Virus record (IMG/VR): IMGVR_UViG_2721755676_000005
Span: 1 to 7,647 of that record
Length of the DNA: 7,647 nucleotides
Source of the DNA: a virus
Taxonomy: Duplodnaviria; Heunggongvirae; Uroviricota; Caudoviricetes
Reading direction: 5' to 3' (one strand)
The position numbers and the translations under genes were made by a program. Numbering within the stretch: the first letter of the stretch is position 1; each line of letters starts with the position of its first letter. This document shows, one piece after another, positions 5,005-7,356 of the stretch. The notes under the pieces were generated by a model. The model ran no database searches. It was given only the letters and a program-made list of their open reading frames with translations, and had not been told where the DNA came from.

Positions 5005-5661
5005 TTACTCACCAACAGCCCACCAACTGTAATGCATAGATACCGTGTCACTGGTTGATGACGTTCTGTAAGCAGAATTAAAGCCGGTTAACGTAGGGCC
5101 TTCTGCAGTCATCACGAACCCTCGCCCAGCGCCTAAAGGCGCACCGCCATCACCAGAATGGGTAAGAATGGCGCAGTCCGCTTTTTTAGGGAAAGGGATA
5201 GGAAATGTAATCCTCATTGTTTGCGTCGATAATTTCGGCATAGCCTCGCCTCGACCATATTGCAGAATTTTACCGTTGGGTAATTTCATCCATCCATCAC
5301 CACTGGCAAAAGAGGCCATGTCCGGTATCTGATTTTCCCCTGTCCCTACATCCCGTTTTGCCGCTTCTCCCAAACCAAGGTTTTCGAGAGCCGTTTTCAC
5401 CGTGCCATCCGATTTGATATCACCAAACGGATTCTTGCGGCTTAACAGCAGAGCACGAAGCGCGGTAAGCAACTGGTCGTTTCGCCCCTTCTCCAGGCTG
5501 GCACCGGATGCCTCCACCACGCTGCAAAGCTCCTCCTGCAACATATCAAAGTAGTCATCATCGAGATCGGTGGCAGGTGTGCCAGTCTGGGGGTTACCAC
5601 GGGTACCCACCCGCCTGGTGTGCAACCTTCGCCAGGCACCGGGAGGCACCCGGCACCACAA
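5005..5661 (-). CDS. stfP: 5'-truncated side tail fibre gene (StfP-like): short constant-region stub fused in frame across the crossover site to the second variable C-terminus
   Basis: Translation contains ...[35 protein letters not shown] (resembles the end of the constant region of lambda Stf / P2 H fibres) followed by a distinct variable tip. The ORF-track start at 5661 is a TTG with an in-frame stop just upstream, and the first ~35 residues are not fibre-like, so the real N-terminus is missing or uncertain. Confidence 0.65.
5365..5390. repeat. Pin crossover site, pin-distal (26 bp): TTCTCCCAAACC-AA-GGTTTTCGAGAG
   Basis: Inverted partner of the 3474-3499 site, sharing 15 bp of identity (TTGGTTTGGGAGAAG on the complementary strand) through the core and inner half-site. 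It encodes ...ALENLGLGE... in the fibre frame. Confidence 0.7.
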
Positions 5662-5682
5662 CTTTATGCTGTGTGTAGTCTT

Positions 5683-5729
5683 GGCGGTACCAGCTTGTAC
5701 CCTTGCTTCCGGCTGGTACCGCCCTTTTT
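5683..5729 (+). terminator. GC-rich hairpin (12-bp perfect stem GGCGGTACCAGC / GCTGGTACCGCC, 17-nt loop) followed by CTTTTT; candidate plus-strand intrinsic terminator
   Basis: Perfect 12-bp inverted repeat at 5683-5694 and 5712-5723 with a T5 run at 5725-5729. No plus-strand gene is obviously upstream, so the role is unclear (may be a relic, or block read-through into xis). Confidence 0.3.
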
Positions 5730-5818
5730 ACAAAACAGAGAAGAGTATCCCCGGATGACGGGGTCATAACCCGATCCATCCTGATAATTGTGGCCACAGG
5801 TGCTCTTCTCTGTTTTGT
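5730..5818. repeat. Perfect 16-bp inverted repeat pair (ACAAAACAGAGAAGAG at 5730-5745 and CTCTTCTCTGTTTTGT at 5803-5818) flanking a 57-bp spacer that contains a CCCCG/CGGGG mini-hairpin
   Basis: Read directly from the sequence. Lies between the truncated fibre stub and xis. Function unknown. Confidence 0.5.
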
Positions 5819-5891
5819 GGAGAAACTAACCGACCTTGCAGGGTCGATATGCAGAGACTGAACAGTTAGTGAAGTAACAAGGTGATCGCAT

Positions 5892-6137
5892 ATGCTTCAA
5901 ATGTTAACTCTTGAAGAATGGGCCTCTGAAAAATACAGAAGTAATCCTCCAAGTGTGTCCACATTGCGTCGTTATGCTAAGCAGAATTTATTTTGCCCAC
6001 CGGCCATGAAACAAGGTCGGTTATGGCGAGTGCGTGAGGACGCTGAGTTAGTTGGGGAGTTGGTAACACCAGTAATCAAGAAAAATGACTCATTACTTTT
6101 GCAACGGATCTTGAGTGATGGCAGCCAGACCGCGTAA
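5892..6137 (+). CDS. xisE: Excisionase (XisE-like), 81 aa
   Basis: ATG at 5892 with an AAGGTG Shine-Dalgarno 7 nt upstream. Small basic protein immediately upstream of the integrase and overlapping it by about 20 nt, as lambda xis/int do. Sequence agrees with my recollection of e14 XisE. Confidence 0.85.
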   Translation: MLQMLTLEEWASEKYRSNPPSVSTLRRYAKQNLFCPPAMKQGRLWRVREDAELVGELVTPVIKKNDSLLLQRILSDGSQTA

Positions 6138-7245
6138 GAATAATGTTTCAGTACCTAACTTATATCCGCTTTATAGTAGGAAGGTAAATAAAGTCTATTG
6201 GCGGTATAAGCATCCAGTAACAGGGAAATTTCATGCGTTGGGAACTAACGAAGCTGAAGCCATCGCTATTGCCACTGAAGCCAATACACGCCTGGCTGAA
6301 CAAAGAACCCGACAGATTCTGGCTATCAGTGACAGGATCGCAACCTGCAAAGGAAAAGCGATCACAACGTCAACCTGGTTAGATCGCTATCAAGCGATCC
6401 AGGATGATAGGCTCAAAAGTGGTGATATAAGACTCAATACCTATAAGCAAAAAGCCAAACCAGTATCCTTGCTCAGAGAACGAGCAGGAATGAAGTTGAT
6501 CTCATCCGTTGATGTCAGAGATATAGCACAATTGCTTGATGAGTATATTACAGCTGGACAGCCTAGAATGGCCCAAGTCGTAAGGTCTGTATTAATCGAT
6601 GTGTTTAAGGAAGCACAGCATTATGGCGAAGTTCCACCAGGGTATAACCCTGCTCTTGCGACGAAGCAACCCAGAAGGAAAATCACCCGTCAACGCCTCA
6701 GCCTGGAAGAATGGCAAAAAATTTTTGATATCGCAGACTCCACTCATCGTTACATGGGAAATGCCATGCTGTTAGCGCTGGTTACTGGCCAACGTTTGGG
6801 AGATATATCCAAAATGAAATTCAGCGATATCTGGGATGATCATCTGCATATCGAACAGGAAAAAACCGGCAGCAAAATAGCCATTCCTCTTTCTCTTCGT
6901 TTGAATGTAATCAACTGGAGCCTGCGCGATGTTGTAGCTCGCTGCCGTGACTATGTAGATAGTCCATACTTAGTACATTTTTTCAGATCAACTTCACAGG
7001 CAGAACGTGGGGCACAAGTAAAAGCTAATACTCTGACTATGAATTTTAGCAAAGCAAGGGATCTGGCTGAAATTGATTGGGGTGAAGGAACCCCAGCAAC
7101 CTTTCATGAGCAACGTTCATTGTCAGAAAGGCTATACAAAGAACAGGGAATAGATACTCAGAAATTGCTGGGACATAAAACCCAGCAACAAACTGATCGT
7201 TATAACGATCTCCGCGGAAAAAATTGGGTAACTTTAACAATATGA
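6118..7245 (+). CDS. intE: Lambda-family tyrosine integrase (IntE-like), about 375 aa
   Basis: Tyrosine-recombinase catalytic signature is visible: R in ...LVTGQRLGD..., H-x-x-R in FHEQRSLSERLY, then LLGHK and the catalytic Tyr in TDRYND. I take the ATG at 6118 as the start (the ORF-track start at 6115 is GTG). Confidence 0.9.
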   Translation: MAARPRKNNVSVPNLYPLYSRKVNKVYWRYKHPVTGKFHALGTNEAEAIAIATEANTRLAEQRTRQILAISDRIATCKGKAITTSTWLDRYQAIQDDRLKSGDIRLNTYKQKAKPVSLLRERAGMKLISSVDVRDIAQLLDEYITAGQPRMAQVVRSVLIDVFKEAQHYGEVPPGYNPALATKQPRRKITRQRLSLEEWQKIFDIADSTHRYMGNAMLLALVTGQRLGDISKMKFSDIWDDHLHIEQEKTGSKIAIPLSLRLNVINWSLRDVVARCRDYVDSPYLVHFFRSTSQAERGAQVKANTLTMNFSKARDLAEIDWGEGTPATFHEQRSLSERLYKEQGIDTQKLLGHKTQQQTDRYNDLRGKNWVTLTI

Positions 7246-7356
7246 ATATTTACATGTATTAGTCGCGACTTGATCTGACACTGAGCCTTGAAAGGTTGAG
7301 AGTTACCGGTTTTGATATGGGTGTCGAATCCTTATACAAAACACGAGGTAACTCTC

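Follow-up and report, generated by a model that had tools for sequence, protein, structure and literature searches.

The window analysed here, 7,647 nt of DNA that includes a remnant of prophage e14, raises the question of what the inverted repeats upstream of its excisionase and integrase genes are. An earlier note on this DNA described a 12-bp hairpin with a T5 tail and a perfect 16-bp inverted repeat with a 57-bp spacer, and offered as candidates an operator or recombination site controlling xis-int, a MITE-like or IS-end scar of a deletion, or a structured RNA. A repeat search of the window reproduced all of these elements. The hairpin consists of perfect arms at 5683-5694 and 5712-5723 (12 nt, 100% complementary, 17 nt between them) followed by a C and then TTTTT at 5725-5729, and the larger repeat of perfect arms at 5730-5745 and 5803-5818 (16 nt, 100% complementary, 57 nt between them). 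The 16-bp repeat was the longest perfect inverted repeat with a gap of up to 150 nt in the entire window. The longest repeat in each of 200 dinucleotide-preserving shuffles measured 9-14 bp and 16 bp was reached in 0 of 200, in agreement with the claim that the repeat is improbable by chance. A perfect 12-bp repeat by itself is not rare, as repeats of at least 12 bp were seen in 15 of the 200 shuffles. Folding of both strands, a check proposed with the original description, was run on 5601-5860 and gave -118.7 kcal/mol and z = -6.97 for the + strand RNA as compared to z = -4.69 for the - strand. For the narrower interval 5723-5826 the folding z was -6.8 on the + strand and -3.3 on the - strand.

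Position of the repeats in the e14 remnant

The gene order of the remnant is mcrA-pinE-stf-tfa-tfa-stfP'|ymfH'-xisE-intE. Alignment to K-12 e14 placed the deletion junction, between the stfP' side and the ymfH-region side, at 5598-5601. Homology to intact K-12 e14 begins at about this point, 80 nt upstream of the hairpin, and with the exception of two identical strains the E. coli matches begin at window positions 5601-5604 (query 42-45). The repeats had been described as lying at the deletion junction, but the same arrangement was found in intact K-12 e14 and in over 2000 further E. coli genomes, and the hairpin and inverted repeat lie wholly within the coding sequence annotated as ymfH in K-12. 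The possibility had also been raised that intact e14 elements carry this arrangement upstream of xis with a known function; the arrangement was indeed found there, and a known function was not. Downstream on the + strand are xisE (5892-6137), the first ORF after the leader in e14, identified as an excisionase by Pfam Exc (E = 6.4e-12) and RefSeq annotation, and intE (6115-7245), a lambda-type integrase identified by Pfam Arm-DNA-bind_1 and Phage_integrase and by RefSeq annotation. A promoter scan of 5400-6000 predicted no sigma-70-like promoter, and the inverted repeat is therefore no obvious promoter or operator. The upstream promoter region is deleted in this e14 remnant, and the element may be silent here.

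Distribution of the module and readings as DNA element or gene

The module of about 250 nt at 5601-5851 is a portable part of the early-left operon of lambdoid prophages of the e14/SfV/ST64B/mEp460 type. It was found in 2245 of 5426 complete E. coli genomes (~41%), in 61 phage records, the phages including SfV, SfII, SfIV, ST64B, mEp460, cdtI and Stx2c, and in 24 stretches of species-representative genomes from about a dozen enterobacterial genera. At all nine annotated loci (9/9) it lay between a cI-like repressor and the first early-left gene and was co-oriented with xis-int; a Klebsiella phage locus without annotation falls outside this nine-locus count.

This distribution bears on the DNA-level readings, in which the repeat is a xis-int operator or recombination site, or the scar that a MITE or IS end left at the deletion. 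A perfect 16-bp inverted repeat adjoining xis-int in a rearranged prophage is what such readings would predict, but the arrangement is unchanged in intact e14, and in most phages the element stands 2.5-3 kb upstream of xis, ahead of unrelated genes of the yfdP/sb37 type and in company with differing integrases and repressors. The spacing of the arms is not fixed, ranging from 57 to 84 nt across the family of the RNA element described below (LH). Substitutions in the arms are compensatory or leave a G·U pair on one strand, which argues for RNA pairing rather than protein-DNA recognition. Our covariance model, R1, detected exactly one LH copy at each locus in a search reaching about 7 kb to either side; at the annotated loci its syntenic position never changed, no dispersed copies were seen, and only 35 plasmid records contained the element. 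In the window itself a search for further copies of the 16-bp repeat, allowing up to three mismatches, returned solely its two arms, and no target-site duplication was visible in the flanks of the window and K-12 e14. Taking the element for a MITE or a junction scar is effectively refuted, and we give almost no credence to a DNA-level element of any of these kinds.

The same DNA carries protein annotations, raising the alternative that it encodes YmfH on the + strand or a phrog_3651-type ORF on the - strand and that the repeats are incidental. RefSeq annotates a 103-aa YmfH in K-12, and PHROGs families match ORFs of both strands (phrog_33599 on the +, phrog_3651 on the -). These are, however, ORF calls on both strands of the same DNA. 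In PK8568, DP051 and O157 the ORF carries a frameshift (PGAP label 'frameshifted' in three genomes), the window differs from K-12 by 1-nt indels, element length modulo 3 is inconstant (0 in 9, 1 in 4 and 2 in 21), 3 of 34 variants have stop codons in all six frames, and substitutions track base pairing. Pfam returned no match for the ymfH ORF. LH is not coding, and a protein product as the explanation of this locus is exceedingly improbable. The original statement that no real gene accounts for the inverted repeat holds, as the overlapping 'ymfH' ORF has no conserved frame. Annotations place hypothetical proteins, the K-12 y-gene ymfH among them, on one or the other strand of LH DNA, and recognising the element removes a spurious gene and spurious PHROG families. 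Small ORFs resembling type I toxins were also considered and were rejected, their translations being unconvincing and the ORFs unconserved.

A conserved RNA junction downstream of a predicted terminator

Comparative analysis showed that 5725-5823 is a conserved RNA of about 100 nt (LH), modelled as a three-way junction with the 16-bp inverted repeat as its closing helix, P1. All of its parts are read on the + strand. The 5' strand of P1 (5725-5749), supported by single-sequence folds, the RNAalifold consensus and pair counts, comprises the 16-nt arm at 5730-5745 with an outward extension by the U-tract at 5725-5729 and an inward extension by UAUC at 5746-5749. The 3' strand (5799-5823; fold and pair counts) comprises the arm at 5803-5818, GGUG at 5799-5802, which pairs inward, and GGAGA at 5819-5823, which pairs with the U-tract. 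In single-sequence folds of the window and of loci L005 and L023, P1 was a continuous 25-bp helix, and GGAGA(A) was almost invariant across the LH family. Helix P2 (5753-5781) was placed by the centroid fold and has an outer stem at 5753-5757/5777-5781 and an inner hairpin at 5759-5762/5770-5773 with the loop GUCAUAA at 5763-5769; it covaries, for example CCGGG/CCCGG, CCGGA/UCCGG and CCAUGC/GCAUGG. The region equivalent to P3 (5782-5798) is degenerate in the e14 variant and was located by alignment columns 64-66/98-100, where all three pairs showed double changes; its length varies from about 14 to 45 nt across the family. After LH, and ahead of the ribosome-binding site of the first gene downstream, the fold placed a further small hairpin (5831-5846) with a conserved (U/G)UGCAG loop. 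In homologues its stems vary (CGACC/GGUCG, GGCGG/CCGCC, CGCC/GGCG, UCCU/AGGA) and the UGCAG loop is kept.

Pair statistics supported the model. RNAalifold predicted P1, P2 and P3 with 10 pairs carrying double substitutions. At the LH pairs 96.9% of alignment cells were paired, as compared to 40-56% when the partners were slid by 1-3 columns, and 63 cells showed double changes against 22.6 in shuffles, with 0 of 500 shuffles reaching the observed number. P1 was 97.1% paired across the family, and the way the arms were collected did not favour pairing, the search having been anchored on the loop. The overall pairing together with the compensatory changes in the arms of the inverted repeat bears out the structured RNA among the initial candidates. 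A tally from the pair tables on the + strand gave about 117 G·U cells versus about 15 A·C cells, and one G·U pair in the commonest E. coli variant would turn into an A·C mismatch if read on the - strand, suggesting that LH acts as a + strand RNA. Rfam returned nothing over 5730-5823 at permissive thresholds (on the window and locally) or at gathering thresholds (12 related loci), and no description of the element was found in literature on ymfH, on xisE with sRNA, on tRNA mimicry or by sequence strings. About 41% of complete E. coli genomes, well-studied phages (SfV, ST64B and Stx2c phages) and cryptic prophages (e14) carry this structured RNA, which matches no Rfam family. A boxA/boxB reading was tried for UGCUCUU in the 3' arm, which resembles rrn boxA, and was rejected; the motif is base-paired and reads UGUUCUU in the commonest E. 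coli variant.

Immediately upstream, 5683-5729 is predicted from the fold and from homologous flanks to be an intrinsic terminator on the + strand (stem 5683-5694/5712-5723, loop 5695-5711, U-tract 5725-5729). The stem has 12 bp, 9 of them G-C, and is followed by C and U5, and the hairpin alone folded at -28.3 kcal/mol (z = -5.7). A terminator scan overlooked it, as the loop limit of the scan was 8 nt and the loop here is 17 nt. Of 95 distinct homologous flanks, 89 had a hairpin abutting a run of at least four T; the stems covary, 33 different 3' stem halves were seen, and between the window and K-12 the loop differs and the stem is retained. The idea that this GC-rich hairpin with its T5 tail could shield xis-int from upstream transcription is thus consistent with a predicted intrinsic terminator on the xis-int strand.

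The terminator would end a small RNA. The interval 5601-5682 (+ strand) matches, at a sub-threshold score, the body of an STnc100-like prophage sRNA in its 3' part, the 5' part having been removed from the window by the deletion. For STnc100 (RF02076) the window scored 25.7 bits and the intact K-12 copy 29.2 bits, and the gathering score of 47 was not reached; judged by score, the module is therefore a relative and not a member of the family. PasD/STnc100 are prophage sRNAs assigned to RF02076 (Zhu, Shabalina & Storz 2026 preprint). Like them the module is prophage-borne, and its 22-nt core, CACCGGGAGGCACCCGGCACCA at 5637-5658 inside the sRNA body, aligned identically with STnc100 and has the terminator after it. 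The 5' part, UGGUGAAU..., is common to STnc100/PasD and the K-12 copy and is missing from the window copy. Unlike the module, PasD/STnc100 have been reported near Q, lpxR and Fels-1 genes and not in an early-left leader.

A second relative is DicF of the Qin dicBF operon. DicF (RF00039) scored 24.9 bits locally in the window (E = 0.0024) and 28.5 bits in K-12 e14, short of the gathering score of 48, with no match in locus L005; true dicF scores 76.7 bits. In 52148/mEp460-type loci the stretch of about 100 nt that precedes the equivalent hairpin shows clear homology to the sequence ahead of Qin dicF, and the position of the hairpin in the prophage operon is homologous to that of the Qin dicF terminator. 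Both are sRNAs within a repressor-controlled operon of early-left type in a lambdoid prophage, and both have a 3' end made up of a GGCGGUA(U/C)CAG... hairpin and U5, but the 5' seed regions differ and both Rfam scores, for DicF and for STnc100, lie far under the gathering score. Taken together the fold, the flanks and these resemblances suggest that 5683-5729 is a Rho-independent terminator ending a DicF/STnc100-like prophage sRNA, termination itself being predicted. Qin also has a 19-nt inverted repeat, 89% complementary, that runs from just after the dicF terminator to the dicB ribosome-binding site; this hairpin downstream of dicF is not homologous to LH (no covariance-model match). In Qin an RNase III site upstream of dicF makes the 5' end of the 190-nt form of DicF (bioRxiv 10.1101/2023.04.14.536235), and the analogy between DicF processing and the module of the window is positional only.

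Two smaller points concern this part of the module. The terminator-plus-leader cassette is a recurrent mosaic boundary in these phages. An ops/RfaH reading was considered for GGCGGUAC in the 5' arm of the hairpin, which matches 7 of the first 8 nt of the ops consensus, and was rejected, as G8 is absent and T6 is absent in other variants.

Candidate roles of the leader

We favour, with slightly more confidence than doubt, a reading of the locus as two adjacent + strand elements, the terminator of a DicF/STnc100-like sRNA and the LH leader, linked by read-through and RNase III-type processing. The order of the module would then be sRNA terminator, LH, UGCAG-loop hairpin and the ribosome-binding site of the first gene, which is xis in e14. 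After induction, transcription from the repressor-controlled leftward promoter would either stop at the hairpin, yielding the sRNA, or read through, and LH would fold in read-through transcripts only. The 25-bp P1 would likely serve as an RNase III-type processing or stability element that separates the sRNA from the downstream mRNA (xis-int, or yfdP...xis-int in complete phages) and determines the 5' end, half-life and translation of the latter. P1 is long enough for this, with 25 bp as compared to the duplex of about 22 bp that RNase III requires and accommodates (PMC6212723). DNA damage induces ymfH, xisE and intE together in K-12, and this depends on LexA cleavage (PMC11228462); the three genes belong to one iModulon (PMC12132413). 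In e14 as in SfV, the terminator of the repressor gene is followed by a strong promoter-like site, TTGACA-16-CATAAT. An RNase III cleavage table for K-12 under non-inducing conditions had no ymfH or xisE entry, and termination, read-through and cleavage at this locus are proposed from the arrangement of its parts.

Phage lambda offers two parallels. The lambda N leader has an RNase III hairpin, a long duplex in the pL transcript just upstream of the N ribosome-binding site, and LH likewise places a long duplex just upstream of the ribosome-binding site of the first gene. At lambda sib/tI the terminator joins a longer RNase III duplex in read-through transcripts only, and here the U-tract of the terminator would join P1 only after read-through. 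LH differs from both in that it has no sequence homology to them and encloses two conserved inner helices, which an RNase III site could do without. The P2 hairpin and the GGAGAAAC tail are near-invariant from Escherichia to Erwinia and Mixta, and as RNase III needs only duplex, a pure processing role leaves this near-invariance unexplained; in the favoured reading P2 probably recruits a highly conserved host factor. The module offers a concrete RNA candidate for how apparently N-less lambdoid phages might gate the expression of recombination and excision genes that lie beyond an sRNA terminator.

LH could instead be a factor-independent processive antiterminator analogous to put of HK022, the nascent junction binding RNA polymerase and letting it pass pauses and Rho-dependent or intrinsic terminators on the way to distal xis-int in phages without N. 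The location in the leader of a long early-left operon of lambdoid phages fits this, as do the absence of an Arg-rich N-like motif from orf33 (SfV) and ymfJ (e14), the first ORFs after the leftward promoter-like site and the ORFs checked for an N-like protein, and the extreme cross-genus conservation of P2, which would suit a ligand as conserved as RNA polymerase. Within P1 there are two adjacent stem-loops with linkers of 0-1 nt, loosely like the V-shaped two-stem put RNA. The put sites, putL and putR, lie downstream of PL and PR, are about 70 nt long and have two stem-loops (PMC9378689). LH, however, is single-copy; over about 7 kb to either side, model R1 gave a single match at each locus, none rightward, none in the HK022 immunity region and none in Qin. 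It lies inside a 25-bp helix and after terminators rather than just past the promoter, at least two intrinsic terminators of its own operon preceding it in the SfV annotation, where LH could not suppress them. No strong intrinsic terminators are predicted downstream in SfV, and LH has no sequence or model similarity to put. We regard antitermination by LH as unlikely.

A slightly less probable alternative, and so also unlikely, is a role in trans, with LH cut out of the read-through transcript to become a stable small RNA that serves as decoy, sponge or trigger. A 25-bp closing helix with a terminator on one side and a hairpin on the other is typical of processing cassettes. Among the triggers of the retron-Sen2 RcaT toxin scored by genome-wide overexpression (bioRxiv 10.1101/2020.06.22.160242) is a K-12 'ymfH' clone that contains the entire element (L001 2442-2753, with LH at 2621-2724), and the ymfH ORF itself is unlike a real gene. 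The screen result was, however, ascribed to protein and was not dissected, and the constant short spacing of LH to the next start codon favours a role in cis. An RNA in this clone would still offer a testable explanation for the 'ymfH' match in the retron-trigger screen.

A further reading concerns P2. The inner hairpin of P2, the most conserved part of the LH family and the most invariant piece of the element, resembles the anticodon stem-loop of initiator tRNA-fMet (metZ ...TCGGGCTCATAACCCGA... versus the family consensus GACGGGCTCATAACCCAATCC). P2 might be a functional mimic of this stem-loop that engages the 30S P site, recruiting or blocking initiation at the downstream ORF, or a protein that recognises tRNA-fMet, such as a VapC-type anticodon nuclease or MetRS. 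The consensus GACGGGCUCAUAACCCAAUCC and E. coli metZ have 14 contiguous nt in common (CGGGCUCAUAACCC), including three G-C pairs and the loop CUCAUAA, and the stem match is longer in the window and K-12 e14 variants (CGGG...CCCGA). In a scan that was not anchored on the hairpin, GGG/CUCAUAA/CCC was present in 82 of 117 distinct variants and UCAU in the loop of 108 of the 117. Other loops occur, however, among them CUCAUUC (14), CUCAUUA (7), CCCUAAC with a GUG/CAC stem and CCCACCA, and several divergent loops lack the purine at 37, U33 or the CAU triplet. Position 32 is a G in the window copy (CGGG/GUCAUAA/CCCG), and the K-12 loop is UUAAUAA. ARAGORN found 0 tRNA or tmRNA genes and there is no tRNA cloverleaf. 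The loop did not covary with the downstream start region, nor was covariation seen for pairing of the CUCAU loop with the sRNA body, and no precedent was found in the literature. We consider functional mimicry of this kind distinctly improbable.

Marginally more doubtful again is the specific form in which P2 is a working copy of the tRNA-fMet anticodon arm, docking in the 30S P site without initiator tRNA or serving as a decoy for a VapC-type nuclease. What keeps it in consideration is the 14-nt identity between the majority variant and tRNA-fMet, and what weakens it is that divergent family members lack the mimicry. Anticodon-arm mimics are known in the E. coli thrS operator, within an mRNA leader, and in PKI of the dicistrovirus IGR IRES. 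As in these, a leader hairpin copies a tRNA anticodon stem-loop, here 14 nt of tRNA-fMet, but in LH the mimicry is missing in some family members. If true, P-site docking would be a bacterial counterpart of IRES tRNA mimicry, controlling early-left initiation. As a separate observation on the hosts, anticodon nucleases of the VapC type specific for tRNA-fMet occur in Shigella and Salmonella, the hosts of SfV and ST64B.

Structure and conservation of the inverted-repeat RNA

The 12-bp perfect hairpin (stem 5683-5694/5712-5723, loop of 17 nt), with C and then T5 (5725-5729) after it, and the perfect 16-bp inverted repeat (IR; 5730-5745/5803-5818) that begins right after T5 and encloses 57 nt, were both found exactly as described in the earlier note. 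The IR was the longest perfect inverted repeat with a gap of ≤150 in the window, and 0/200 dinucleotide shuffles reached its length (shuffle maximum 14). The note had proposed searching for other copies of the repeat; allowing 3 mismatches, the window held no further copy of the 16-mer and only the two arms were recovered. RNA folding of 5601-5860 compared to shuffles gave z = -6.97 on the + strand and a weaker z = -4.69 on the - strand.

The IR forms helix P1 of LH (5725-5823), as we call this three-way-junction RNA. Distinct LH sequences (124) were gathered using a loop-anchored pattern that left the arms unselected for pairing, and the 16-bp stem was kept through 37 different arm pairs. Double substitutions were seen at four arm positions (A-U to C-G, G-C to C-G, and A-U to G-C at two), with the G-C to C-G change in 15/31 representatives, and some arm G·U pairs would be A·C mismatches if read on the other strand. 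The consensus structure was obtained with RNAalifold from the 31 representatives and comprised a P1 of 23 pairs (the 16 bp, UAUC/GGUG inside and the terminator U-tract/invariant GGAGA outside), a P2 in which an internal loop separates an outer stem from a hairpin of 3-4 bp that carries a 7-nt loop, and a P3 of variable length. Standard pairs filled 96.9% of cells as compared to 40-56% with the partners slid 1-3 columns. Double-change cells numbered 63 versus 22.6 ± 4.5 in column shuffles (0/500 reached 63), and a tally from the pair tables gave about 117 G·U to 15 A·C cells. Sequences folded singly also took on this shape, with P1 continuous over 25 bp and junction linkers of 0-1 nt (z = -6.8 to -8.8); for the window copy, z was -3.3 when the - strand was folded. 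The LH covariance model found one copy per locus, and neither Qin nor the HK022 immunity region gave a match. LH had no Rfam counterpart, whether the window was searched at permissive thresholds or 12 loci at gathering thresholds. The IR element is a widespread, well-supported structured RNA without an Rfam family, presently annotated as hypothetical protein genes, and covariation and folding bear out the structured RNA that the earlier note had listed among its candidates.

A protein-coding LH was rejected. The 'ymfH' ORF is flagged as frameshifted in PK8568, DP051 and O157, the window differs from K-12 by 1-nt indels in this region, LH lengths span all three classes modulo 3, 3/34 LH variants have stops in all six frames and a Pfam search returned no match. 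RefSeq labels window 5594-5861 YmfH or 'frameshifted hypothetical protein', and PHROGs families are assigned to ORFs on both of its strands (phrog_33599, +; phrog_3651, -), a signature of conserved non-coding sequence; these ORF calls are probably annotation artefacts. An overexpression clone of 'ymfH' was reported to trigger the retron-Sen2 RcaT toxin (bioRxiv 10.1101/2020.06.22.160242). As the ORF looks spurious and the clone holds the whole sRNA-terminator-LH RNA (K-12 CDS at 2442-2753 of the e14 locus, equivalent to window ~5601-5860), the trigger could be RNA. DNA-site readings were also rejected. An operator or recombination site for xis-int, or a MITE, as previously suggested, is contradicted by arm spacing that ranges from 57 to 84 nt, by compensatory and one-strand G·U arm changes, by the occurrence of LH independent of integrase or repressor type and by the element being single-copy and syntenic.

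Distribution, synteny and the e14 remnant

The ~250-nt module (5601-5851) was matched in 2245/5426 complete E. coli genomes, at a median of one and up to six places per matching genome, and in 61 phage records, with only 35 plasmid records. Phages with the module include SfV, SfII, SfIV, ST64B, mEp460, cdtI and Stx2c/Stx2a phages, and it is also present in Citrobacter phiNP and a Klebsiella phage. A wider search, for which the pattern was drawn from the loop in the IR element, detected it in Citrobacter, Enterobacter, Kosakonia, Leclercia, Mixta, Erwinia, Buttiauxella, Klebsiella, Pseudescherichia and Pseudocitrobacter genomes and in at least 120 viral contigs. A 171-nt core (5681-5851; hairpin, IR element and small hairpin) was common even to loci with a different upstream 80 nt. 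At all annotated loci examined the module lies downstream of a cI-like repressor gene (LexA/S24-type or XRE-type) and upstream of, and co-oriented with, the first gene of the early-left operon (yfdP/sb37-yfdQ-yfdR...xis-int); e14 is without the yfdP-T block and its module therefore abuts xis. K-12 e14 (1603-1630 of its locus) and SfV (2237-2264) each have a strong, near-consensus promoter-like site, TTGACA-16-CATAAT, directly behind the terminator of the repressor gene, and this is likely the leftward early promoter feeding the module. C4 antisense RNA and isrK RNA, both above Rfam gathering scores, were detected about 2.6 kb from LH on its rightward side in ST64B (325-513), SfV (92-280) and mEp460 (324-512), all on the - strand, indicating that these phages combine several RNA regulators.

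The window reads ycgX...iraM, icdC', mcrA, pinE, the invertible tail-fibre segment, a truncated stfP-like gene, xisE and intE, and is identical in sequence to E. coli PK8568. Compared to K-12 e14, all DNA from stfP to the 'ymfH' region is absent. Alignment placed the resumption of homology with intact e14 at ~5598-5601, so the structured element starts 80 nt inside retained DNA, and K-12 e14 holds the same hairpin and perfect 16-bp arms within the CDS annotated ymfH. The element is neither a product nor a marker of the deletion, and the earlier note's placement of it at the junction is not upheld; the note's structured RNA and terminator hairpin stand, and its junction, MITE and xis-int operator readings fall. 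A truncated tail-fibre ORF (gp53-like C-terminal domain; 5005-5661, - strand) crosses the junction; the antisense strand of the sRNA-like region supplies its first ~20 codons, so this is a fusion ORF produced by the deletion. The TTGACA-16-CATAAT site of e14 and SfV is deleted in the window and no promoter-like site was seen near the element there; in this remnant the element may be a silent relic.

The terminator hairpin and other RNA-like matches

Judged by its sequence, the hairpin at 5683-5723 with its T-run is an intrinsic terminator on the + strand, as the earlier note had supposed. A hairpin abutting a T-run was found in 89/95 distinct homologous flanks, with 33 different stem sequences, and K-12, compared with the window, has kept the stem and has a rewritten loop. 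The 5' arm (5683-5690, GGCGGTAC; GGCGGTAT in DicF) carries 7 of the first 8 nt of the RfaH ops consensus; G8 is absent, T6 is absent in other variants, and the likeness was judged coincidental.

Sub-threshold matches to two Rfam models end at the hairpin: STnc100 (25.7 bits in the window, 29.2 in intact K-12; gathering score 47), with the 22-nt core CACCGGGAGGCACCCGGCACCA aligned identically, and DicF (24.9 and 28.5 bits; gathering score 48). Both gathering thresholds were missed and membership in either family was rejected. At 52148/mEp460-type loci the ~100 nt that precede the hairpin show plain homology to the Qin region upstream of dicF, and the hairpin stands in place of the DicF stem-loop and terminator. 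By this DicF-type position and flank homology, and by the weak Rfam matches, the hairpin is the end of a DicF/STnc100-like prophage sRNA module, related to known prophage sRNA terminators and diverged from them. The deletion has taken away the 5' part of this sRNA body in the window. A 2023 preprint on dicBF regulation (bioRxiv 10.1101/2023.04.14.536235) ascribes two DicF ends to processing, the 5' end of the 190-nt precursor being made by RNase III and that of the 53-nt form by RNase E. The terminator is not a topic of the preprint, which cites Faubladier et al. 1990, a paper whose title gives transcription termination as one route. Qin has a 19-nt, 89% complementary inverted repeat (2445-2463/2574-2592 of its locus) running from just after the dicF terminator to the dicB ribosome-binding site, which is an analogue in position only. 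Inside this repeat the sequence shares homology with the 5' portion of e14 'ymfH' (GTGGTGAATGCGGCT.AGCGCACGCGG) and includes a CACCTGGAGGCACCAGGCAC motif resembling that of the STnc100 core. It appears that sRNA modules are shuffled among prophages.

Elsewhere in the window, psRNA2 matched at 7190-7354 on the - strand (46 bits, E = 7e-9, gathering score 65), sub-threshold yet significant, overlapping the intE 3' end and DNA beyond. A weak tpke11-like match (1452-1522, - strand, 26.4 bits) has at its centre a strong hairpin, ACGGGCGUAUAACACGCCCGU, located a short way downstream of an iraM-like ORF (1101-1424), and is probably just a terminator.

The P2 tip, proposed mechanism and downstream region

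LH is most conserved at the P2 tip (consensus GACGGGCUCAUAACCCAAUCC). There the inner hairpin of the family consensus (window 5757-5776; columns 35-54 of the LH alignment) shares a stretch of 14 identical nt (CGGGCUCAUAACCC) with the anticodon stem-loop of E. coli initiator tRNA-fMet (metZ), which takes in the three G-C pairs and the CUCAUAA loop; in the window copy the sequence is CGGG-GUCAUAA-CCCGA. A further scan used the 3' arm as its anchor and was thereby unbiased for the P2 hairpin; in it the exact tRNA-fMet form was present in 82/117 distinct variants and UCAU in the loop in 108/117; other loops were CUCAUUC, CUCAUUA, CCCUAAC (stem GUG/CAC) and CCCACCA. The tRNA-fMet likeness is thus dominant, not universal. 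ARAGORN called no tRNA, and the P2 loop gave no sign of covariation with the downstream start region.

With the position, strand, structure and conservation of LH and the terminator adjoining P1 established here, we propose that transcripts from the leftward promoter would either stop at the hairpin, yielding the sRNA, or read through. LH would fold only in read-through RNA because the 3' arm is the pairing partner of the U-tract and 5' arm. At 25 bp, P1 would likely act as an RNase III-type processing and stability element, uncoupling the sRNA from the mRNA, and would determine where the 5' end lies and how the downstream genes are expressed, by analogy with the lambda N-leader hairpin or tI/sib. 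RNase III accommodates a duplex of about 22 bp (PMC6212723). DNA damage co-induces ymfH, xisE and intE in K-12 (PMC11228462), and an iModulon table places them in a single iModulon (PMC12132413). The P1 processing role leaves unaccounted for the invariance of P2 and of GGAGAAAC, the nearly invariant sequence after P1, and this invariance argues for a specific, very conserved partner. Three alternatives for it were ranked. The first, a put-like antiterminator that binds RNA polymerase, is disfavoured as LH is single-copy and sits after two terminators; the second is that LH is a trans-acting processed RNA, and the third is true tRNA-fMet mimicry by P2.

Beyond GGAGAAAC lies a small hairpin (5831-5846) whose stems differ among lineages and whose loop keeps (U/G)UGCAG, followed by a Shine-Dalgarno sequence and the start codon of whichever gene comes first; in some variants the Shine-Dalgarno sequence is the 3' half of the small hairpin itself. 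This hairpin, with a stem that covaries between lineages and a UUGCAG loop that recurs on P3 of some LH variants, may serve as a site for protein binding.
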